A stretch of DNA of 64,000 nucleotides, taken from assembly GCF_044324785.1 (NCBI RefSeq), contig NZ_CP172127.1; one strand, written 5' to 3'. Below are positions 19,998 through 34,036 of the stretch, piece after piece (position 1 is the stretch's first letter; every line of letters starts with the position of its first letter). This DNA comes from Escherichia coli. GTDB taxonomy: Bacteria; Pseudomonadota; Gammaproteobacteria; Enterobacterales; Enterobacteriaceae. A program made the position numbers and the translations under genes. The notes beneath the pieces were generated by a model. It had not been told where the DNA came from and searched no databases. It saw only the letters and a list, made by a program, of their open reading frames with translations.

Positions 19998-20243
19998 TTG
20001 AGAGTTACCGGTTTTGATATGGGTGTCGAATCCTTATACAAAACACGGGTAACTCTCATGCTTCATACTACCAATCCCGTTATCAAACACAAAGCCAGTT
20101 TGCTCAATCTGGCTGAAGAACTCAGCAACGTATCAAAAGCCTGTAAAATCATGGGCGTTTCGCGTGATACGTTTTATCGTTACCGCGAACTGGCCGATGA
20201 AGGCAGGGAAAGATTACGAAAGCCCGCTCCCTGCAAGGACTGA
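19998..20243 (+). pseudogene. transposase N-terminal HTH fragment (IS481/IS3-like), truncated
   Basis: 81-aa ORF ...[34 protein letters not shown] matches the GxSRxTxYxWxxRY HTH pattern; 3' end overlaps the H-repeat transposase. Confidence 0.3.
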
Positions 20244-21287
20244 CGCCAGGTAGTTTCTGTCCATGGCTGCTTTTCGCATCTTACGTCTTAACCCTGCCTT
20301 GAATACCTTATCATTCGTTAAAATATTAATAGCGATGTGCCGTATCCCTGAAAATAATTCTGCTGCATTTCCTCTTCTTATTTTGCAGTCGTCTTCATTC
20401 ATTACCACGTCCAGACGCCAGTGCAGCTTATTCTCCACGTGCCAGTGATTTCGGATCGCTGTGGCGAACTTCTCAGCGGTTAAATCAGCAGAACTGATGT
20501 AATATCTGACCGTCATTTCTGGCTCTTTCTTTTGTTCTGCTATTATGGACCGAAAGGAGACTGCCACGCATAATTTCTTCAGTCCTTTCCATTCAAACGT
20601 GAAATCAATAAGTTCATCAGGGACATCGCAAACAATATGAAGACGGATTTCTTCTCTGCCTTGACTTTTTTCACTAATTGCGTAACTGTCATGCTCTGGA
20701 TTATTTAATTCTTTCAGTGGGAATTTTTCCTCAAAGGCTTTATTAAGCCGCCCCTGATTTCCTTTTACAGCGAATAAATAATCACCGCCCTGTTTTTGTA
20801 TCTTCTCTGCGATATCTTTCTGGCAACCCATCGCATCAGTTGTGATAATTTTTCCTTTAATATCCAGCATGTTAAGAAGTTCAGGGATAGCTGTGATCTC
20901 ATTGGATTTCTTATCCGTCCTGATCTGTCCGATGACAAGACTGTGCATTGTTGAGAACGCACTAATGACATGAATCGCTCCCCTGCGGCGACTCTTGTCA
21001 TAAGAATGCCGGAGCGTTTTTCCATCAATTGCAATAACGTCTTTATCATCTGAAGAATGGCAGTCACGCATCCCGTTAATAAAGCACTCGTGAAATTTTA
21101 CAGGACTGATACAGGATACAACTCTGGCAATGGTATCGTGAACAGGAATACCATTTTCAAAATCACCATATTGCTTCAAAAAATCGAGATGTGTTTCCCC
21201 AAAATCCTCTATATCTTCCCAGCATTCTGCACCAGAAATAACGGCACAAATAGTCAACAGTAGAATATCCGACAATTTATGTTCCAC
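20214..21287 (-). CDS. ISAs1-family (H-repeat-associated) transposase; frame extends to ATG at 21350 but is interrupted by an in-frame TAG at 21291..21293
   Basis: 357-aa ORF (V/M)[35 protein letters not shown]... typical of Rhs-linked H-rpt ORF-H; upstream in-frame MELKKLMEHISIIPDYRQA-TAG-K. Confidence 0.8.
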
Positions 21288-21630
21288 TTTCTAGGCTTGT
21301 CTGTAATCGGGGATAATAGAAATATGTTCCATCAATTTTTTCAGTTCCATTTTGTTCTCCTTAATTATGTAAGGAGTATTTGATCATGTATACGCAATAA
21401 AAAACAGCTTTAGGTAATAAGGAATATCTCAATTTTTAAACATAAAATGCGAATTATTTAGTACAAAAAGTGAACTTCTGATGATCTTTCCCTGCCCATT
21501 GGGTTCATTAAGATCAAGAATAATGGGAATATGCTCAAGAAGACTTTGAATGTTCACCAGACGTCCTTTTCTAATATATTTAATTATTTGGCGATTAAAT
21601 TTTAATCAAATCAACAAGGTAAAACCAAGA

Positions 21631-21660
21631 TTAAAGTTGTGATGATAATCACAACTTTAA
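21631..21660. terminator. perfect 13-bp inverted repeat (TTAAAGTTGTGAT-GATA-ATCACAACTTTAA), candidate terminator downstream of the Rhs immunity gene
   Basis: seen directly; on the minus strand it is followed by TCTTGGTTTT. Confidence 0.4.
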
Positions 21661-21696
21661 TGATCTTCCCCTGATTCCTCCAGTCCTTTTATTTGG

Positions 21697-22071
21697 TTAC
21701 TCTAATGGTTTTATTAATTGTAAATTTTTAAATGTCATGCTTAATAAGCCATCAGAAAAATAAAGAAAAAATTTATATATCCTTTTGTTTTTTAATTTCT
21801 TTATATACCCATTACTTATATTACCTGACTTGTGATTATCGATTAACTCAGCAGAATCCATAGCGAACACTAAATCATCTACATCAGAAAATTCAACTAT
21901 CATTTTTTCCCTAATGTTCTCATTTTTATAAATGTCAATAAATAACGTCATGTTAAAATGAGATTCTTTGAATGTCGTTTTTACTTCTAACAAAACCCCA
22001 TCATGCCAGTCAATTGAACTCACAATGTCAAAATCGCTCATTATATAATCTCCATTATCCGTTTTAATCAT
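21697..22071 (-). CDS. ydcD: Rhs-associated immunity protein (YdcD-like), about 124 aa
   Basis: [31 protein letters not shown]...; ATG (22071..22069) overlaps the Rhs stop TGA (22070..22068) as ATGA; no signal peptide; AT-rich. Confidence 0.7.
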
Positions 22072-25000
22072 GGAGTAACAACGTTTGCAGGTATTGACCA
22101 CCAAAGAGGTGGTGCAAGTGAAGGTATAAATCGAATCACTCTATATATAACATACCCTGCGCCAATTGTAGCACCAGTTGCAAGAGCCGCATCAGTAGTT
22201 GATAGCCCGGAGGTTTTGCATGACAGATCTTTACTTGGTTCTGGCTCGAAACCATATTTTTTTGCACATTTCTTAATGCTATTTGGTGCTGATGAGTAAT
22301 CCTCACCATGGGACATACCTCCAAATTCCCCCATTACACCACTCCCATTTTTACACTCCCAATGCAAATGTCTTCCGTCACCAACAGCATCGCCATCTAT
22401 TCGGATTCGACAACCTTTACCACAGTCCTTCCATTTTCCTGAAGTATGAGCTAATCCCAATGGATCAATCCATTGCACAGGATTGTTCATAACATAACTG
22501 TACGGGTTTATTCCCCCCGCCAGCCCTATCGGATCCTGGATGATATACCGCCCCTGCAACGGATCGTAGTACCGGTGACGGTTATAATACAGCCCCGACT
22601 CCTCATCGTGTTGCTGCCCAGGCAGACGGTAGGGCTGGTGCAGGTGATGCGGGTTTTCCTCATTCAGCAGGTTTCCCCACTCATCATACTCCCCGCTCCA
22701 CGCCGTATTGCCGTCTTCGCTGATGAGCGCCAGCGGCAGGCCCCGGTGGTCGCAGTGGTAAAGATGAACTTTTCGCGCCGGTGTGTATTCCGGCTCCACC
22801 TGTCTGGCCAGTTGCTCTACCGTCAGCCCGCACTGCGCAAGCCACGCCCGGCTTTCACTGCTCACGCGGTCTGCCCGGATTTCCCCCTCCAGCCTGTCCA
22901 GCATCCTCACAAGTTCTGCCGGGAACACCACACCGTGTCCGTTCTCGCTCCCTTCCTGCTGCAACTTCTCCGCCAGGCTCCGCCGCTGCGTTTTCTCCCG
23001 CTCGCCGTTGTCTGTTTCGATGCGGATGAGTGGTGTGAAGCTTCCCGGCTCGTATACCGTCTGGATACGTGTGCTGTCGGTCTGCACCGTCGTCAGGTGG
23101 TCGCCGTCCCAGCCGTACCACGTCACCTCCGGTTTACGCGACAGCGACATCCACCCCGTCAGGTCACGTACCCGCCGCCACACCCGTTTACCCGTCCGGC
23201 GGCCCAGCGGGTCGTAGAGGTAGCGGCTCTCCACCTGCGGCTCGCCATGCTGTATCCGCGTGTAGAACACCAGGCGGTGCTGGCTGTCGTAGTGGTAGTG
23301 GTGGGTCCGCTCGTCGTCCGTCCGTATCACACCCGCCGGGATGCGGTCCGTCTTCTCCGTCAGCCTGCCGTATTCATCGTGGCGGTAGACATAGTGCGCA
23401 TCCTCCGCGATGCGGTTATCCGGCCACACTGTGAGTGTACTGTCCGGGTGCAGCTCCGGGTCCGGCAGCCGGTTGCCCGCCGGGTCCGTGGCATACGGGA
23501 TGCGGATGTCCAGGTCCGGTGCGAGGGTGCGCACACTCTCCAGCCTGCCCGTGGCGCTGTAGCCGTATTCCCGCGTCTGTCGCGGGCCGCTGATGCGCAC
23601 CAGGTCGCCGTTGTCATTCCACCCGTAGTCACGGTCATACACCAGGCTGTTCAGGTGCTGGCTCTGTAACTGGCCTGCGGGGGTGTATGTGCTGGTCAGT
23701 TCGTATGCGGCATTACTGCCTGCCATGCTGCCGAAGCTGCGCACCGTCTCCCGGTGCAGCCTGTCCCGCGTATACTCGACCCGCGGCGTCCCGCCCAGCT
23801 TCATTCCCGCCAGGTAACCGCTGCCATACGTCAGCCACTCCACCGGCGGCAGGCTGTCCGGCGTGACGCGGTTTGCCAGCCCCTGCTCGTTGTATGCGTG
23901 TTTCGTCTCATGCTGCCACAGCAGTTCCCCCGTCTCCGGGTTCTCCACCGTCTGGCGTTCGCCGGTCAGGCGGCCTTTATCGTCATAGCCGTAGTGGACC
24001 GCCACACGGTGGCCTTCACTGATATGGCTGAGGGTGGTTAACCACCCGTGCTCATCATACTGCCACTGCTCTGCCGGGTCGCCGTTCACCGTCCGGTGCG
24101 TGATGCGGTCTGCTTCATCGTAGTACCACTGCGTGACCTGCCCCTCATCCTAGCTGCGGATGAGCTGCCCTGTGGCGCTGTACCGGTAACGCTGTGTCCT
24201 GCCATCAAAGCCGCGCTGCTCCGTCAGGCGGTCCAGCACATCGTAGGTAAATTCACTCCGGCTGCCGTTCTCGTTGGTCAGCACGGTGATGCGCCCGGCA
24301 GCGTCATACCCCATGCTGCGCGTCAGCCCGCCTTCCGTCACACTCACCGGACGCCCGCGTTTATCATATGCGATGGTGCTGCGTTTACCGTCCGGTGATA
24401 TCGTTGCTGTCAGGTCGCCTGCGGCACTGTACTCATAACGGGTTTCACGCCCCTGCGCATCCTTCTGCCCTGTCAGCCTGCCGCGGCTGTCATAGAGACT
24501 ATAAATACTGAGACCTTCCTCCCGGTGAACGGCGATTTGTTGACCGTACCGGTCATACTCATACCGCGTCATGTACCCCGAGCAGTCCGTGAAGGCCCGA
24601 AGCTGACCGTACCGGTTTCGCGTTATTCTCCGCGTTACCCCGATTCCGTCTTCCACCGCGCCGGGCAGGCTACTGCGGGGGGAGTCATAAAACCAGCGTG
24701 TAATGTTACCGTTGCGCGAGGTCTCTTCTGCCAGTCGGCCCTGACGGTCATATTTCCGGCTGCTGCGTAAACCATCCGGATATGTCACTGAAGTCAGTTG
24801 CAACTGGCTGTTATAGCCATACCACACCGTCCTGCCGTCCGGCAGTATCACTGAAGTCAGCTTTCCAGACGCCATATGCAGCCGGTTCACCGTCCGCCGC
24901 CCCGCCGCATCCGTCTGCGCCTTCAGCCTCCCCGCCTCATCATACTCGCTGCGGGTGATGCTCCCGTCCGCATGCTCCTTCTTCACCACCCGCTTCAGAC

Positions 25001-26242
25001 CACCTTCGCCTTCCGTGTACAGCACCTCCCGCCGGTTCAGGCTGTCCGTGATGGTCACACGGTCCTGCCCGTACTCAAAGCGGTAGTCCAGTCCCTCCTG
25101 GTTGACCTGCTCCGTCACCCGCCCGGTATCATCATACCGGTAGCGGCTCTCCGGCCTCCCTGCATAATGGCGCGCCACCATCCGCCCGGCGTGCTCCGCA
25201 TCATAAGTAAACCCGCGCACCTGCGTCCCGCTGCGGTCATACACCGCCCGCAGTTCTCCGCTGGCCGTGTACGTGTAGCGCGCCAGCGGCGCAGTCGGCT
25301 GTTCATCCGGGTATGCCGGGTCGTGTGTCAGCCACACCGCCTCCAGACGGATACCGTTATCCGTGCCGTATTCTGTACCGGCGGGCAGCGTGTCGGGGAA
25401 AGCTGAAGAAGAGGAAGCAGAACGGGGACCTGCAGGGGAAGATAAAGACGTGGCGCGCTGTTTACGGAGGGCTTCCGCCCGCTGCGCCTGTGTGGTCAGC
25501 GCCAGATGAAAACGGCGGCCCGCGCCGTCCGTCACCCCCGTCACCGCGCCCGCCGCTTCCCCCTCTGCCGCCCGGTGGAAGGCCAGCGTCCGCCCGAAGC
25601 CGTCCACCACGCCCGTCAGCACCCGGTATGCGGGCGGCTCCGGCGGCAGCACCTCGTCCGCCTCCGGCACCCGCTCCGGCCAGCCGAGTATCAGCCACTG
25701 CCCGGTTGTGCTGGCAGCCATCATATAGATGTGTGGACTCAGACGGACCGCTTCCGGCAACGCCCGCCAGAGCCGCGCAAGCGGGTGGCCTTTGTGCTGT
25801 TTCAGCACCCCGCCCCGCGCCAGCCAGAACGACTCACTGCGGCTGTAACTTATCTCGCCGGGAAACAGGGGTTCAAAGTGAATACTTCTGCCGCCACTGT
25901 CGTTGAGTATCAGGCCTTCATCGCGTATCTGTAAGCGGATATCGAAGGGGGCTTTCCAGCCGGGACCAAACACCCCACCGGCGCGGGTGTCCTGGTCCGG
26001 TAGCTGCTGTAAGCGCGAGAAAGAATAAACGGCAGCGGGCCGGGCAGCGCAAGGTCCGTCTCGCCCGGCAGCACCTTCGCACCCAGTAGCGGGTTCAGCG
26101 GGTTAGCATAGGTAATCCCTCCCGGACACACCGAGCAGGCCACTCCCGTCGGCGCACCTATCAGCCCCCCTGCTGAACCCTGCACAATATCCAGTCCCTT
26201 GCGGGTCATGTCACCCTGCCGCGCCGCCGGTTTTCCGCTCAT
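22068..26242 (-). pseudogene. rhsE: Rhs family protein, full-length copy inactivated by a 1-nt deletion (about 25968) and an in-frame TAG (24150..24152); C-terminal tail differs from the upstream Rhs
   Basis: Three collinear minus ORFs (25910..26242, 24150..25973, 22068..24089) together align along the intact Rhs at 26781..31043; core ends ...[28 protein letters not shown] then a 127-aa unique tail. Confidence 0.8.
22480..24089. repeat. Rhs core segment nearly identical to 27286..28895 (direct repeat, constant offset 4806 bp)
   Basis: Identical encoded protein over about 380 aa ([28 protein letters not shown]...KLQQEGSE) and identical antisense ORFs at 22473..23669 and 27903..28475. Confidence 0.85.
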
Positions 26243-26318
26243 GGTTTATTCCTTTTCTTTTACCTTACATGTCCATACAAATAGTTACCTATACTGTCTT
26301 TGAATATTGCCCTACCAT

Positions 26319-26768
26319 TTAAAGCCCACCTATTTCTTGCGACAGAAAAGGGATTTCTTTTTTAATCCAATCTACCATTTCATTTTTTTCAAAACATACG
26401 TTAATGCCATTCACACTTCCACATTCACCAAAACCATCAAAATAAATTTCACATTTATTATTTTTATTCGAAACAATGTCAATCCCCCATCTTATATCGT
26501 TATTCTCCTCCTTCCTGAAATACTTCATTTGCAATAAATCAATTATCTCACCAGCATAAAAATCGCTAACCCCATTCACCACCACTTTATGTTTGTATAT
26601 TCTCTTGAGACCTTCCTTGCTAAGCGGGGTTAAGGTGGTAACATATGCTGGAAGATTAATTATTTCTATCGTTTTCACACTATCTATTCCACACAATTCA
26701 TTCACTCGCCCCATCCCCAATACCGAAGCAGAAAATAGAGACAATAAAACCATCAAATATTTCATCAT
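26319..26768 (-). CDS. candidate immunity protein for the Rhs HExxH tail; predicted exported (N-terminal signal peptide), 149 aa
   Basis: Starts 12 bp after the Rhs stop; MMKYLMVLLSLFSASVLG hydrophobic N-terminus; four Cys (C26, C116, C123, C131); AT-rich. Confidence 0.7.
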   Translation of the reverse strand: MMKYLMVLLSLFSASVLGMGRVNELCGIDSVKTIEIINLPAYVTTLTPLSKEGLKRIYKHKVVVNGVSDFYAGEIIDLLQMKYFRKEENNDIRWGIDIVSNKNNKCEIYFDGFGECGSVNGINVCFEKNEMVDWIKKEIPFLSQEIGGL

Positions 26769-26780
26769 AAAAAAATCTCA

Positions 26781-29700
26781 CTATTCTGGCGTGCCATTTA
26801 TTGTTGCCGTCTGTGTTGGTGTATTCACACGATAATACACTCCATTATATGCTGTTCTGGTACACTCACCTAAAGTTTTCGCCGCATGCTGTTCAATTAA
26901 AGTGATAACTCTCGCCTCTTCTTTATTTTTATATTGTTCATCCGCACGTCTCACAAGCCCCATATAGCCATCCTTATCAATAAGATATAAGTGCGCATGA
27001 GCAAACTCATGCCCCAAACCTAATGCAGGTGATTGTGATTTCGATTTTAAATCAGTTGAACAAAATAAAGCCGCCTTACCATTCCAATATATAGTCATTT
27101 TATCCGGGTCAAATCTAACGTCGGTTTCATCAATATACTCTATCTTTATGGTTTCTTCAGAGCTTGATAAAAAATCTATAGCTTCTTTCATTCGTGAATC
27201 TTGTTTTAAATACTCAACAGCCTGATTAAAATCACTTGGATCATCGTTAACATGGAATTTTAAACCCAAAGAATCTATAAACCGAACAGGGTTTAATGGA
27301 TATTTATACAGATTCCATTCACCTCTTAGCCCGATTGGATCCTGGGTGATATACCTCCCCTGTAGCGGGTCATAGTACCGGTTCCGGTTATAGTACAGTC
27401 CTGATTCCTCATCATGCTGCTGCCCCGGCAGACGGTATGGCTGGTGCAGGTGATGCGGGTTCTCCTCATTCAGCAGGTTGCCCCATTCATCATATTCCCC
27501 ACGCCATTCCGTTGCTCCTTCGGTACTGATGAGCGCCAGCGGCAGCCCCCGGTGGTCACAGTGATAAAGATGAATTTTTCGCTCAGGTAAATAAACCGGC
27601 TCTATCTGTGCCGCCAGCCGCTCCACCGTCAGCCCGCACTGTGCCAGCCACGCCCGGCTTTCACTGCTCACGCGGTCTGCCCGGATTTCCCCCTCCAGCC
27701 TGTCCAGCATCCTCACAAGTTCTGCCGGGAACACCACACCGTAGCCGTCCTCGCTTCCTTCCTGCTGCAACTTCTCCGCCAGGCTCCGCCGCTGCGTTTT
27801 CTCCCGCTCGCCGTTGTCTGTTTCGATGCGGATGAGTGGTGTGAAGCTTCCCGGCTCGTATACCGTCTGGATACGTGTGCTGTCGGTCTGCACCGTCGTC
27901 AGGTGGTCGCCGTCCCAGCCGTACCACGTCACCTCCGGTTTACGCGACAGCGACATCCACCCCGTCAGGTCACGTACCCGCCGCCACACCCGTTTACCCG
28001 TCCGGCGGCCCAGCGGGTCGTAGAGGTAGCGGCTCTCCACCTGCGGCTCGCCATGCTGTATCCGCGTGTAGAACACCAGGCGGTGCTGGCTGTCGTAGTG
28101 GTAGTGGTGGGTCCGCTCGTCGTCCGTCCGTATCACACCCGCCGGGATGCGGTCCGTCTTCTCCGTCAGCCTGCCGTATTCATCGTGGCGGTAGACATAG
28201 TGCGCATCCTCCGCGATGCGGTTATCCGGCCACACTGTGAGTGTACTGTCCGGGTGCAGCTCCGGGTCCGGCAGCCGGTTGCCCGCCGGGTCCGTGGCAT
28301 ACGGGATGCGGATGTCCAGGTCCGGTGCGAGGGTGCGCACACTCTCCAGCCTGCCCGTGGCGCTGTAGCCGTATTCCCGCGTCTGTCGCGGGCCGCTGAT
28401 GCGCACCAGGTCGCCGTTGTCATTCCACCCGTAGTCACGGTCATACACCAGGCTGTTCAGGTGCTGGCTCTGTAACTGGCCTGCGGGGGTGTATGTGCTG
28501 GTCAGTTCGTATGCGGCATTACTGCCTGCCATGCTGCCGAAGCTGCGCACCGTCTCCCGGTGCAGCCTGTCCCGCGTATACTCGACCCGCGGCGTCCCGC
28601 CCAGCTTCATGCCCGCCAGGTAACCGCTGCCATACGTCAGCCACTCCACCGGCGGCAGGCTGTCCGGCGTGACGCGGTTTGCCAGCCCCTGCTCGTTGTA
28701 TGCGTGTTTCGTCTCATGCTGCCACAGCAGTTCCCCCGTCTCCGGGTTCTCCACCGTCTGGCGTTCGCCGGTCAGGCGGCCTTTATCGTCATAGCCGTAG
28801 TGGACCGCCACACGGTGGCCTTCACTGATATGGCTGAGGGTGGTTAACCACCCGTGCTCATCATACTGCCACTGCTCTGCCGGGTCGCCGTTCACCGTCC
28901 GGTGCGTGATGCGGTCTGCTTCATCGTAGTACCAGAGGATGACAAGCCCCTCATCTTCACTCTGCGTGAGTTTTCCGGTCAGGTCATAATGATAACGTTG
29001 CGTCCGCCCGTCAAAGCCGCGCTGCTGTACCAGGCGGTCCAGCGCATCGTAGCTGAAGTCGCTGTGACTGCCGTTCTCGTTGGTCAGGCTGATGACACGT
29101 CCGGCAGCATCGTACTCCATACTGCGCGTCAGCCCGCCCTGCGTGGTGCTGACCGCCTTTCCCCACGCATCGTACTGTGTCTCGCTCCGGTTGCCGTCCG
29201 GGGTGATAACGGCAGTCAGGTCGCCTGCGGCGTTGTACTCATACTGCGTTTCACGGCCCTGTGCGTCTTTCACCGAGGTTAACCGGCCACGGTTGTCATA
29301 GCGGCGGTAACGGCTGATACCTTCCTCACGGTGGACCGCCGTCATCTGACCAAAGCGGTCGTATTCATAACGGGTCTGGTAGCCCGAGCAGTCGGTGAAC
29401 GCCAGCAACTGCCCGTAGCGGCTCCAGGTCATCTGCCGGGTGCTGCCCGTCGCATCCGTTGTCGTCGCCGGTAATTCACTGTGCGGATTATCATAAGCAT
29501 ACCGGATGACGTCCCCACTGCGCGATGTCTCCGTTACCAGCCTGCCCGGTTCATCATATGCCCGGCGGCTCTCCAGCCCGTCCGGGGACACCACTGCCGT
29601 CACCTGGTTCCCGTCGTTATAGTAAAATTTCGTCTCCCGCCCGTCCGGTGTGGTGATGTCCGTGATATCGCCTGACACCACATTCAGACCGTACTCTGTC

Positions 29701-31043
29701 CGCCGTCCCGCCGCGTCCGTCTGCGCCGTAAGCCGCCCCACCGGGTCATACCCGCTGCGCGTGACGCTGCCGTCCGCCAGTTCTTTTTTCACCACCCGTT
29801 TCAGCCCGCCTTCACCTTCTGTATGCAGCACCTCACGCCGGTTCAGGCTGTCCGTGACGGTGATGCGGTCCTGCTCATACTGGTAGCGGTAACTCAGGCC
29901 TGCCGGGTTCAGCTGCTCCACCACCCGCCCCGCATCGTCGTAGCGGTAGCGCATCTCCGGCCTTCCCGCGTAACGGTGCGCCACCATCCGGCCCGGGTGC
30001 TGCGCGTCATACGTGAAAGCGCGCACCTGCGTATTGCTGCGGTCATATACCGCCAGCAGTTCACCGGCTTCCGTATACGTGTACCGCGCCAGTGGCGCAC
30101 CGGGCAGATTCTCCGGGTATGCCGGGTCGTACATCAGCCACACCGCTGAAAGACGGATACCCCTGTCGGGGCCGTATTCCGTACCGGGCAGTGTGTCGGG
30201 GAAAGCTGAGTCTGAAAGAGGGCGGGGGGTGTCAGGGGAAAATAAGGAAGCGGTGTGCTGTTTACGGGCCTCTTCCGCCCGCTGCGCCTGCGTGGTCAGC
30301 ACCAGACGGAACTCCCGCCCGGCACCGTCCGTCACGCCGGTGATTTCCCCGGCCAGGTCACCGGCGGCCTCACGCCGGTACGCCAGCGTCCGCCCGAAGC
30401 GGTCTGCCAGCCCGGTAAGCACCCGGTACGGCGGCAGCGGCGCTGGCAGTACGTCCTCAGCACCCGGCACCCGCTCTGACCACCCCAGTATCCACCACGG
30501 CCCCTGTGCGCTGTTGGTCGCCAGGTAAAGATGCGGGCTTAACCGGATATCCGGCGGCAGCGCCCCCCACAGCCGTGCCAGCGTGTGGCCGTCCGGCTGC
30601 GCTGCCTTACCACCGCGCACCAGCCACATTGACTCGCTGCGGCTGTACACCGCCTCACCCGGCAGCAGCGGCTCAAAGTGAATGCTCCGCCCGCCGTTGT
30701 CGTTGAGTATCAGTCCGTCATCACGTAGCTGTAAGCGGATATCAGAAGGCGCTTTCCAGCCGGGGCCGAAAACGCCCACCGGCGCAGGCGTCTTCGTCCG
30801 GTAGCTGCTGTAGGTGCGGGAGAGAATGAACGGCAGCGGGCCGGGCAGCGCAAGGTCCGTCTCGCCGGGCAGCACCTTCGCCCCCAGCAGCGGATTTACC
30901 GGGTTGCCCGAAGTCATCCCGCCCGGACACACCGAGCACGCCACGCCGGTGGGCGCGCCAATTCTTACACCTGCCGAACCCTGGACAATGGGACCGCCAT
31001 ACTGAGTCATATCTCCCTGACGCGCCGCTGGTTTTCCGCTCAT
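26781..31043 (-). CDS. Rhs family protein with conserved PAAR-like N-terminus, YD-repeat core and C-terminal tail containing an HExxH motif, 1420 aa
   Basis: [42 protein letters not shown]...; YD repeats; core ends ...[27 protein letters not shown]; tail 26781..27260 contains [10 protein letters not shown] (codons at 26997..27011). Confidence 0.9.
27286..28895. repeat. Rhs core segment nearly identical to 22480..24089
   Basis: see paired repeat. Confidence 0.85.
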
Positions 31044-31109
31044 GATTCAATTCCTTCTTCTGTTTATTTTTAATGCTTGTTTGTTACTGAATACCGAACA
31101 GGTACGGGA

Positions 31110-33218
31110 TCAGTACTCTCTCATATCCGGCGTATCCTGCTTTTCATCAGGGGTCTTCGGTGGGGATTTCGAGGCTGCACAGTTCCAGTTAATCAACAGT
31201 GAGTCACCATTAACCTGCTCCTTACCCTGCAAATGAATTTTTGTGCCGTTGAGAAAAATTTGTCCGTCCTTAGTCAGCACCAGCCTTGCCTTACCACAGC
31301 AGAGTTCCAGATGCTCACCGGCGGAGTAAATCGCGGTCTGCCCGGTATCATCCTTTTTCGTTTTACCAACGGTGAAGGTAACGTTATTTCCGACTTTGAC
31401 GTCATAACCCAGCCCGACCCTCAACGATTTATGCAAACCGATCTGCGAGGACTGCATCAGGGCCACCGAGGTGTTCATAATGCCACCTACCGTCGTCTGA
31501 TACGCCACGCCCACAGTCAGCGCACGCACAAGTCCAATCGTTTCCACCTGAACAGAGCCCACTTTAATGATCTGGTTACTGCCCACCGTCTCTATCTGGT
31601 TAACACCCACCGTCTGTATCTGATTGTTGGTAACCGCAATCATCTGATTGTTGCCAATGGTCTCAGCATGGTTGTTTATCACATCCGTGGTGCGGTTATT
31701 CAGCACCTCGGTGTTCATATTCTTCTGCGCGTGGATGTAGACCTGTTCTTTCCCTGTCGCATCGTCAAACTTCAGTTCATTAAACCCGCTGCCCTTATAG
31801 GTTTTCGAACGAATGGTCATCTGCGTCTTTGTTCCCGGCAGGCTGCCGGGGGTGCGGTTTTCCTGGTGGTAGGTACGCCCCATAATAATCGGCTGGTCCG
31901 GATCGCCGTTGAGGAAGTCCACAATGACTTCCTGACCCACACGCGGTATCGCCAGGTTGCCAAAGCTGGTGCCTGCCCACGCCTGTGCCACACGGATCCA
32001 GCATGAACTGTCCTGGTTTGACGGGTTATAGCGGTCCCAGTTAAATTTCACCCGCACGCGGCCATGTTCATCACAGAAGATTTCCTCGCCTGCCGGTCCT
32101 GTCACGACGGCGCTCTGCGGGCCATCCACCAGCGGTTTCAGCAACGGCTGTGGTCGCCATGTTCTGTCTGCCGGTATTACCGCAAAGTGGTTATTCAGTG
32201 TGGTACCCGAACCACTGCGTCCCGGCACCGCCTGCGGCTGCTCGCCGTGCAGATCGCTCGCCACCACCTGCCATTCACGGTTCAGGTTCGCCTGCGGATG
32301 CCCCGTCAGCGCAATTCGCCGTCCCGGCCATATCTCCGGCGAACGGCTTGTTCCGCGCGCCACTTCTGCGTTGTTTCGCCAGCCATCCATCTGCCAGCGG
32401 GCAAAGTTCTGCCCGTGGGCACCCTTGAAACGTCCGGGGTAGTCATACACTTCATACTGTGTGCGCTGGTAATCCTGGTGCTGGCCTTCCTGATCAAAAC
32501 GCCCTGCCCAGCCGGGTCGTTTAAAGGTGTAGTCTTTGGTCACCACGGAAGATGGGCGGATTTGTGCGCTGTAGCGGAACTGGCTGATGCAGAGGGTGCT
32601 CACCTCGGTACGGGTGTTCGGATTCCAGGGGATCTCAAAGGACTCCGGCAGATAACGCACGGTGTCGCACAGGACCAGGCTCTGGTCGGTACTTTTTTGC
32701 GCGTGCTCCTCATAAAAGAAGATGCCTTCCTCCGCCGCCATCCGGCACAGGAAATCGTAATCGGTCTCACCGTACTGGACACAAAATTCACGGGAAGGAT
32801 GCGGCTCGCTGAACAGCGGACTCCACTCGGTCACCCCGTTTTCTTTCAGGATCGTCACGAGGATGCTTTCGATGTCCTCATTCTGGAAGATACGGAAGTT
32901 CTGGCGCAGCCCTGTGCGCCACAGCGGTGGGCACACCTTCATGCTGTACAGCATCTGGTTTTTGTCGTTCTCCCCCAGTTCAAACCAGGTCACCACACCT
33001 TTCACCCGGCGCTGTACGTCATCGCCCTGCCATACCGTCAGGTAGGCCATTTTGTCCAGCACCTGCGCAAATTCAAGGGAAAGAAACTGCTGACTGACCA
33101 GAGAAAGGTCGAGGGAAAAAAGTGAAGAGAGTGACTGGTTCAGATGAAAGGAGACCACCGCAAACGCGTCCGGTGGCAGGCCGTCCACTTCCAGCGTGAA
33201 ACGTAATCCGGTTGACAT
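31110..33218 (-). CDS. vgrG: VgrG (type VI secretion spike protein), about 702 aa
   Basis: MSTGLRFTLEVDGLPPDAFAVVSFHLNQSLSSLFSLDLSLVS... with GGAGG RBS; ends 67 bp before the Rhs start; track ORF extends to 33323 but the RBS supports 33218. Confidence 0.88.
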   Translation of the reverse strand: MSTGLRFTLEVDGLPPDAFAVVSFHLNQSLSSLFSLDLSLVSQQFLSLEFAQVLDKMAYLTVWQGDDVQRRVKGVVTWFELGENDKNQMLYSMKVCPPLWRTGLRQNFRIFQNEDIESILVTILKENGVTEWSPLFSEPHPSREFCVQYGETDYDFLCRMAAEEGIFFYEEHAQKSTDQSLVLCDTVRYLPESFEIPWNPNTRTEVSTLCISQFRYSAQIRPSSVVTKDYTFKRPGWAGRFDQEGQHQDYQRTQYEVYDYPGRFKGAHGQNFARWQMDGWRNNAEVARGTSRSPEIWPGRRIALTGHPQANLNREWQVVASDLHGEQPQAVPGRSGSGTTLNNHFAVIPADRTWRPQPLLKPLVDGPQSAVVTGPAGEEIFCDEHGRVRVKFNWDRYNPSNQDSSCWIRVAQAWAGTSFGNLAIPRVGQEVIVDFLNGDPDQPIIMGRTYHQENRTPGSLPGTKTQMTIRSKTYKGSGFNELKFDDATGKEQVYIHAQKNMNTEVLNNRTTDVINNHAETIGNNQMIAVTNNQIQTVGVNQIETVGSNQIIKVGSVQVETIGLVRALTVGVAYQTTVGGIMNTSVALMQSSQIGLHKSLRVGLGYDVKVGNNVTFTVGKTKKDDTGQTAIYSAGEHLELCCGKARLVLTKDGQIFLNGTKIHLQGKEQVNGDSLLINWNCAASKSPPKTPDEKQDTPDMREY

Positions 33219-34036
33219 AGCAACCTCCGTGAAAATGAATAATAATCCGCACATATTGCATGTACAACATGTCGGGCGGATGAGATAAGCGAGTCGACAT
33301 CTGGCGTTACCGGGGAATATCAAAAAATGTCATGGTTATGTGATGATTTAGTCTGGGATTTTACTTCAGAGAAACGGGTGTCTGTTTAGTCAACAAAATA
33401 ATCACAAACGCAACGGATGGGTTCTCGACGTTATTCACGACAGGCTCGTACATTACAGCGAGTAATAAAAACCTGATATGCAAAGTCAAACCAATATTCA
33501 TAATGTCTTTTTATTCACAACAATAAATAATTCAATAACAATCATTGAAATGAATGATGGTTTGTATAAGGAATATACGCTGCCGCCCCACCCTGATAAC
33601 ATGATCTGCACATTGCCATCTTAACGTCGTTAAACACTGGCTTAATAGTGGATATTTAAAATTAGGAATTTATTAAATTCACCTGATGAATATCATAAGC
33701 AAATAGCATAGAAAATAATGACAACTCCCCCGAGGGGACCATTTCCAAAGCACTGCACCACCACCTGGTGCCCGGATGATCTTGCTTCAGTGGTAAGAGT
33801 ACCTGATTCATTGTTCCCAAAATGGTGTTTTCCCCTGCCCCTCCAATAATGTGCAGCTCTCACGTGATAATCTATTGATTAGGTTATATTAAGAATCAAT
33901 ATTTGAAATACATCCATTTTCTTGAATAAATCAACATGTTTATTTATCAATTGCTGTTTTAGCTCTGACTCATCAAGCTCTCCATATTTGTCCTACAGAT
34001 AATCGCGAATAAATACAGAGAACGCCATTTATCCTT

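Follow-up and report, generated by a model that had tools for sequence, protein, structure and literature searches.

How have two neighbouring Rhs genes, whose cores for the most part reach an identity of only about 70%, come to share a segment of 1.3 kb that is almost identical? The question is raised by a 64,000-nucleotide stretch of Escherichia coli DNA (contig NZ_CP172127.1; below, the window), in which two Rhs genes stand in tandem on the minus strand behind vgrG; the gene closer to vgrG is termed here the upstream gene and the other the downstream gene. Rhs proteins are major weapons delivered between bacteria via type VI secretion systems (T6SS), and the deployed tip decides whom a strain can kill. 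Comparison of the two copies with each other and with those of other strains makes it likely that the shared tract results from gene conversion between the tandem copies, by which the 3′ third of the downstream core was made RhsD-E-type and was later extended and patched in both directions.

Pairwise alignment showed that the two genes form a direct repeat in which the offset is 4806 bp throughout, as the initial annotation of the window had stated. Positions 22819–24128 and 27625–28934 are identical at 1303 of 1310 sites (99.47%), and the seven mismatches are located at 22836, 22839, 22937, 22938, 22943, 22950 and 23805. The segment 22951–24128 matches the upstream copy at 1177 of 1178 positions and contains the longest exact run, 854 bp (22951–23804). 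In 2000 trials in which the 422 mismatch positions were shuffled, no identical run longer than 83 bp was obtained, so the tract is not due to chance. Identity drops abruptly on the 5′ side, to 70.0% (841 of 1202 positions, 24129–25330); on the 3′ side it is 81.8% (243 of 297 positions, 22522–22818), and homology extends no further than 22522, where the DPxGL motif marks the start of the toxin tips. The alignment proposed in the initial annotation as a check, in which uniform divergence along the cores would have spoken against conversion, accordingly showed a discrete block with sharp edges. The near-identical repeat of about 1.6 kb described there is a real block, but its near-identical part amounts to 1.31 kb; the larger figure (22522–24128, 1607 bp) takes in 297 bp that are only 82% identical.

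The protein landmarks given for the block were right: the two products are identical over 395 aa, ending in ...KLQQEGSE (aa 704–1098 of the upstream gene product). The antisense open reading frames (ORFs) at 22473–23669 and 27903–28475 on the plus strand, which had been called identical, have a common stop and share the 190 codons of the shorter one because both lie inside the tract; they are identical only over those codons. They are by-products of cores with a guanine plus cytosine (GC) content of 64–65%, and nothing suggests that they are genes.

The identity of the tract extends to synonymous sites. Among the 392 codons of the 5′ flank, synonymous differences number 112 and non-synonymous ones 127. 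In 22951–24128, a single difference in total was found; the tract is therefore not a product of protein constraint, since synonymous sites, unlike those of the flank, are identical too. A discrete tract, abrupt ends and homogenization at synonymous sites are thus all present, as is characteristic of gene conversion.

Rhs cores are assigned to the subfamilies RhsA-B-C-F, RhsD-E and RhsG-H (cited in PMC2935791). Outside the tract, the upstream and downstream genes are 70% identical, which corresponds to the divergence of about 22–29% between subfamilies, and the moderate similarity of the cores noted in the initial annotation on the 5′ side is explained by their belonging to different subfamilies, RhsD-E and RhsG-H, respectively. 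Over nt 0–2100 of the upstream gene, most bins of 150 nt are 93–100% identical to K-12 rhsD, with three bins at 83–88%. The RhsG-H-type part of the downstream gene is its N-terminal half (gene nt 0–1950), of which nt 0–1350 are 88–97% identical to the gene at the RhsG locus of E. coli W, with one 150-nt bin at 72%. Both copies of the tract are of the D-E type, being 98–100% identical to K-12 rhsD over gene nt 2250–3000. Between these two parts of the downstream gene, directly 5′ of the tract, lies a segment of 172 bp (24129–24300) that shows only some 70% identity to each of the other Rhs types found (D-E, G-H and rhsA/B/C); of 5,426 complete E. coli genomes, about 151 contain it at an identity of at least 95%. 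This segment marks the lineage of the downstream gene and was also found in strain XJ6.1, as part of a hybrid gene.

Seven tandem loci from complete genomes were compared, including those of the window, N3, 19KM1831, PCN033, 19KM1776, elppa4 and 2013C-4830. The closest complete genome, N3, is 99.7% identical to the window over 11.8 kb. In strain 2013C-4830, which agrees in the tandem and in the junction between the two units, the tract is absent: the two copies are 57–95% identical per 100 nt and differ at 160 positions of the 775-nt tract core. In the other loci, the limits of the tract vary, namely gene nt ~2115–3420 in the window and N3, ~2290–3300 in 19KM1831, ~2160–2935 in PCN033 and ~2300–2935 in 19KM1776 and elppa4. 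An older core of the tract (gene nt ~2161–2935) is accordingly present in six of the seven loci, with lineage-specific 5′ ends between ~2160 and 2300, and the extension to nt ~2115–3420 is limited to the lineage of the window and N3.

The direction of exchange was scored at 91 sites at which the two copies of PCN033 differ. The downstream copy of the window carries upstream alleles at nt 2936–3069 (19 sites), and its upstream copy carries downstream alleles at nt 2125–2160 (6 sites), 3114–3171 (16 sites) and 3390–3392 (3 sites). At nt 3114–3171, both copies of the window have the downstream allele, both copies of 19KM1831 have the upstream allele, and PCN033 has one of each; this opposite fixation means that the same polymorphic pair of 58 nt, at one and the same locus, was homogenized one way in one lineage and the other way in the second. 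Between the window and PCN033, 25 sites of the tract core have changed in both paralogs together, and one site in a single paralog. Paralogs are thus closer within genomes than between genomes, and an unconverted pair exists in 2013C-4830, a pattern typical of concerted evolution. A mosaic haplotype of 291 bp (23040–23330), present twice in the window, was found at an identity of at least 99% in only 2 of the 5,426 genomes.

Judged by these comparisons, the block is a patchwork of several two-way events over an older shared core. The claim of gene conversion in the initial annotation is consequently supported by the population data, but not as one recent tract. The course of events would have been as follows: D-E-type sequence replaced the 3′ third of the downstream core by non-reciprocal homologous recombination, and later events extended and patched the tract in both directions. 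RecA-dependent strand exchange and heteroduplex repair are the probable enzymology.

The downstream gene, which the initial annotation had treated as an Rhs core like the other (22068–26242), proved to be a pseudogene without an intact reading frame. A deletion of 1 nt in a run of G (G5 to G4, 25973–25976) leads to a frameshift, and an in-frame TAG is located at 24150–24152, 22 nt 5′ of the tract, where other strains have GAG. The two lesions are situated on the 5′ side of the tract; 3′ of them, 22068–24149 forms an open frame of 693 codons ending in the tip, a Tox-WTIP domain (PF15654, E 4e-13). The pieces of the gene match positions 91–696 and 698–1261 of the RHS_core model. In RefSeq, the downstream copy of N3 is annotated as ‘frameshifted; internal stop’, with the same two kinds of lesions. 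The G-run frameshift and the TAG are common only to the window and N3 and are absent from the downstream copies of other strains; nonetheless, most of the latter are also annotated in RefSeq as disrupted, which suggests repeated independent decay of the downstream copy. The gene would thus be dead at its 5′ end and would have kept an open 3′ cassette consisting of the core end, the Tox-WTIP tip and the presumed immunity gene.

Because of this position of the lesions, a crossover at any point of the tract would give an intact chimera. In silico, such a crossover yielded an uninterrupted ORF of 1389 aa, while the reciprocal product contained 66 stops. A single crossover would delete 4806 bp, comprising the upstream tip, its immunity gene and the decayed 5′ part of the downstream gene, and would join the downstream toxin to a working delivery part, that of the upstream gene. 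Genes of this architecture occur in nature. A single Rhs gene, of upstream type up to nt 3420 and of downstream type from nt 3425, followed by a presumed immunity protein identical to that of the downstream gene, is present at the RhsE locus of strains WP4-S18-ESBL-07 and elppa4, and 224 records match such a chimera at 95–99% identity. These single-gene alleles could be products of deletion or precursors of insertion. The deletion or tail swap suggested in the initial annotation is therefore plausible, given the intact ORF and the existence of such alleles.

Several points weigh against the reading of the tract as conversion between the tandem copies and against its proposed consequences. The artificial junction expected after deletion (downstream tail, tract and upstream 5′ flank) has no match of at least 99% among the 5,426 genomes, and the one clear hybrid with the 172-bp segment, that of XJ6.1, switches at nt 1930–1977, outside the tract. 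The Chi sequence GCTGGTGG is absent from the Rhs genes (22068–31043), while the whole window contains 13 copies, against about 2 expected from shuffles. For the direction of exchange, PCN033 served as the reference, although its state is not necessarily ancestral, and the sample consists of seven tandem loci. Part of the sequence could stem from a distant paralog: the ST70 rhsD gene carries the 291-bp haplotype at 99.3% identity. Some of the identity could also date from the recombination that built the tandem instead of later conversion. Finally, the two genes are putative toxin genes, known from sequence.

Some candidate explanations of particular features were rejected. As products of a simple deletion, the best matches to the artificial junction (96.6%) do not qualify, being older single-gene alleles; the XJ6.1 hybrid does not qualify either, as its switch point lies upstream of the tract. 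Chi sites are ruled out as the cause of the tract ends, none being located in the Rhs genes; the nearest one is inside vgrG, at 32126–32133.

Among the other explanations of the block as a whole, the one that survives best is that it represents homology duplicated by the event that built the tandem, either integration of a circular core-tip molecule by a single crossover or unequal crossover, with no later conversion. Such integrations have been proposed, and in an E. coli locus the associated core fragments were noted to be identical to the dissociated ones (Jackson et al. 2009, PMC2935791). Single-gene alleles that could have served as the recipient exist at the RhsE locus, and the same vgrG–Rhs–Rhs module is found at two chromosomal loci in different strains. 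However, a single crossover homogenizes nothing and needs prior identity. The junction of the dsORF-h1-like gene with the start of the next Rhs gene is old: it occurs both in the tract-free strain 2013C-4830 and, as a truncated remnant, in ETEC4091. The ends of the tract vary among strains of the same architecture, and the window and 19KM1831 show opposite fixation. As the sole source of the block, tandem building is thus rather improbable, although it may be the source of the older tract core. A Campbell-type origin of the junction was also considered and found unnecessary, the same 76-bp junction being present in 2013C-4830 and, truncated, in ETEC4091.

Overwriting of each copy on its own by a third Rhs gene, for instance rhsD or an imported allele, with no exchange between the neighbours, is less probable still. 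It would agree with the close match of the tract to K-12 rhsD, with the presence of the rare 291-bp haplotype in the ST70 rhsD gene, and with the exchange between loci that does occur, as exemplified by a patch of six sites found in elppa4 at two distant loci. On the other hand, K-12-type rhsD is only 88–89% identical over nt 3000–3300, where the copies of the window are about 99% identical to each other, and N3 has no rhsD between mnmH and ybbP. Two independent imports of the same rare mosaic are also less parsimonious than exchange between neighbours. An rhsD gene of the same genome was rejected as the donor, since in N3 it is absent from the canonical site and the surrounding 50 kb contain no match to the tract; two further places in N3, outside this 50-kb search, match the 291-bp query. 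A separate decayed Rhs/ISAs1 cluster next to nrfB, seen in the examined N3 stretch 4370000–4419999, has no similarity to the tract.

An assembly artefact, in which reads of one copy polished the other, is barely credible: the 1.3-kb repeat is longer than short reads, and the hazard was flagged in the initial annotation, but tracts with strain-specific ends are present in five independent complete genomes (N3, 19KM1831, PCN033, 19KM1776 and elppa4), and N3 agrees with the window over the 11.8 kb mentioned above. Purifying selection, which might be invoked because the block encodes part of the structural YD-repeat cocoon of the Rhs shell, is already refuted by the pattern at synonymous sites (one difference in 1178 bp, against the 112 synonymous codon differences of the flank), by the divergence of the 2013C-4830 pair in the same region, which constraint cannot explain, and by the fact that the downstream gene is a pseudogene.

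Gene conversion between the tandem copies thus being the preferred reading, the tract is regarded mainly as a by-product of recombination between paralogs and only incidentally as a substrate for switching. Another proposal, that the tract is a maintained recombination handle, with the downstream gene as a silent store of a second toxin/immunity cassette in a genome-wide toxin-shuffling network, is unlikely. If it were true, the 5′ half of the downstream gene would be free to decay, with lesions that differ among strains but are all located upstream of the tract; repeated conversion would keep the handle identical; and one crossover would switch the deployed toxin on demand, probably via a transient duplication preserving the first immunity gene. 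The same D-E-type handle would then link the RhsE locus, the RhsG/T6SS-1 locus and rhsD.

Concerted evolution of bacterial paralogs by gene conversion is represented by tufA/tufB in Salmonella and by the rrn operons. Common to those cases and the Rhs tract are the greater closeness of paralogs within a genome than of orthologs between genomes and a non-reciprocal, homology-dependent exchange. In contrast to them, only an inner segment of 1.3 kb of genes of 4.2 kb is affected here, the partners are about 30% diverged elsewhere, and one of them is a pseudogene.

For E. coli, a 1998 report by Wang, Zhao and Hill (J Bacteriol 180:4102) is said to have placed RhsH in tandem with RhsE at minute 32.8 and, in its abstract, reportedly described exchange between cores of different subfamilies. 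The tandem of the window resembles the RhsE–RhsH tandem in occupying the same chromosomal locus as K-12 rhsE, between ydcC/ISAs1 and yncH, in consisting of two Rhs genes that come from different subfamilies and share about 70% identity, and in containing a dsORF-h1-type ORF. It differs in that the RhsH-type tip and the dsORF-h1-like gene are attached to the D-E-type upstream gene, and the G-H-type N-terminus belongs to the downstream gene; in ETEC4091, unlike the window, the RhsE and RhsH elements are separate and stand in another order. Compared with ETEC4091, where these elements stand apart, core and tip are, by sequence, shuffled.

In Salmonella LT2, a stretch of 522 bp is 95% identical between the main and orphan rhs genes, and their recombination was shown experimentally to produce a chimeric rhs and to delete the main immunity gene (Koskiniemi et al. 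2014, PMC3967940). The window is similar in having an upstream rhs gene and a downstream toxin/immunity cassette with a core stretch of high identity, and in the intact ORF obtained by crossover in silico. It differs from LT2 in the downstream copy, which is not a truncated orphan but has the full length, belongs to another subfamily and is silenced by point lesions, and in the shared stretch, which is longer and more identical (1310 bp at 99.5%). Switching was demonstrated by experiment in LT2, whereas for the window it is predicted from sequence.

Displacement of the C-terminal rhs tips through circular intermediates was described by Jackson et al. 2009 (PMC2935791). The locus of the window agrees with this model in the evolutionary decoupling of core and tip, in the presence of identical core fragments upstream and downstream within the locus, and in the decay of downstream copies. 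The model explains the building of arrays, not the later identity of the copies; in addition, an entire N-terminal half is retained in the downstream unit of the window, and strains that have the same array differ in their tracts. The tract is thus a further instance of the well-known recombination behaviour of Rhs genes at a long-studied E. coli locus, and the current understanding of Rhs evolution is unchanged, being documented in more detail. The locus samples natural states of the process: an unconverted pair, pairs converted to varied extents and in different directions, and the single-gene crossover architecture. It also explains how a usable toxin cassette can still come from a downstream Rhs gene that has decayed. 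Short-read assembly and automated annotation can err at this locus, both in the 1.3 kb of identity and at the lesions of the pseudogene.

By its flanking genes, namely the narZ operon, yddE, nhoA and yddH on one side and yncH, yncG and ansP on the other, the stretch is placed at the E. coli RhsE locus. The order on the minus strand is vgrG, upstream Rhs gene, 149-aa ORF, downstream Rhs gene, 114-aa ORF and the remnant of an ISAs1/H-repeat element (Table 1). Both Rhs genes match TIGR03696, the Rhs-associated core domain, and both are organized in the way typical of Rhs, with a core ending in DPxGL, a variable AT-rich tip and then a small ORF; the DPIGL motifs are located at 27327–27341 in the upstream gene and at 22521–22535 in the downstream gene. 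The GC content is 37–43% in the tips and 27–34% in the ORFs that follow them.

Table 1. Features of the tandem Rhs region, in the order of the minus strand
Feature	Position	Strand	Characteristics
vgrG, T6SS spike gene	31110–33218	−	TIGR03361, E 2.7e-188; directly upstream of both Rhs genes
Upstream Rhs gene, intact, 1420 aa	26781–31043	−	DUF6531 N-terminus, RhsD-E-type core, tract, HExxH tip
Upstream copy of the tract	27625–28934	−	Corresponds to aa ~704–1140 of the intact gene product
Presumed immunity gene of the upstream tip, 149 aa, 34% GC	26319–26768	−	Relative of ‘RHS element protein dsORF-h1’
Downstream Rhs gene, pseudogene	22068–26242	−	RhsG-H N-terminal half, 172-bp segment, D-E-type tract, Tox-WTIP tip
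Downstream copy of the tract	22819–24128	−	Gene nt ~2115–3424; encodes the YD-repeat shell's C-terminal third
Last 297 bp of the downstream core, outside the tract	22522–22818	−	82% identical to 27328–27624, up to DPxGL
Presumed immunity gene of the downstream tip, 114 aa, 27% GC	21697–22041	−	Presumed from position only
ISAs1-family transposase remnant (H-repeat, ydcC)	20214–21287	−	Bounds the Rhs element on the downstream side

The upstream gene matches NF041261 (RHS_core) with 2753.6 bits (cutoff 2000), covering model positions 1–1261, and its N-terminus contains DUF6531 (E 1.2e-18); for the PAAR motif, by which such proteins are loaded on the spike, the match is not significant (E 0.14). 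Its tip, 26781–27326, carries an HExxH motif (GHEFAH); no significant match to it was found in Pfam, the best one being Peptidase_M91 (E 0.089), and it may be a metallopeptidase toxin of an unclassified type. The 149-aa ORF product is identical at 126 of 150 aa to the annotated dsORF-h1 of strain ETEC4091, and the tip is of the RhsH type, with a dsORF-h1-like presumed immunity gene. In a search with profile hidden Markov models, neither of the two presumed immunity ORFs had a significant match in NCBIfam or Pfam. The product of the 114-aa ORF is exactly WP_001279013.1, as annotated in N3 and WP4-S18-ESBL-07, and its role in immunity is presumed from its position only.

In K-12, only the 3′ part of the core is left at the RhsE locus. 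The rhsE pseudogene (K-12 1527890–1529938), compared with window positions 22524–24041, is in places 99–100% identical to the tract, and its start lies about 90 nt inside the 5′ end of the tract-equivalent region.

The tandem also occurs elsewhere in the chromosome. In PCN033, 19KM1776 and elppa4, a module of vgrG, Rhs, a dsORF-h1-like ORF and Rhs, about 97% identical to window positions 21600–33400, is located at the T6SS-1/RhsG locus, where the gene order is tssB, tssC, hcp, vgrG ... ISAs1, yafV. The presence of the same module at two loci means that the whole tandem has moved between them. The six-site patch of elppa4 (nt 2936–2941) is shared by two D-E-type Rhs genes, at the RhsG and RhsE loci, which are megabases apart, and is missing from the corresponding genes of related strains; this suggests that gene conversion takes place between distant loci too.

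The start of vgrG is probably the ATG at 33218, and its counterpart in N3 is annotated as VgrG. The remnant at the other end of the element is annotated in N3 as ‘ISAs1 family transposase, internal stop’.

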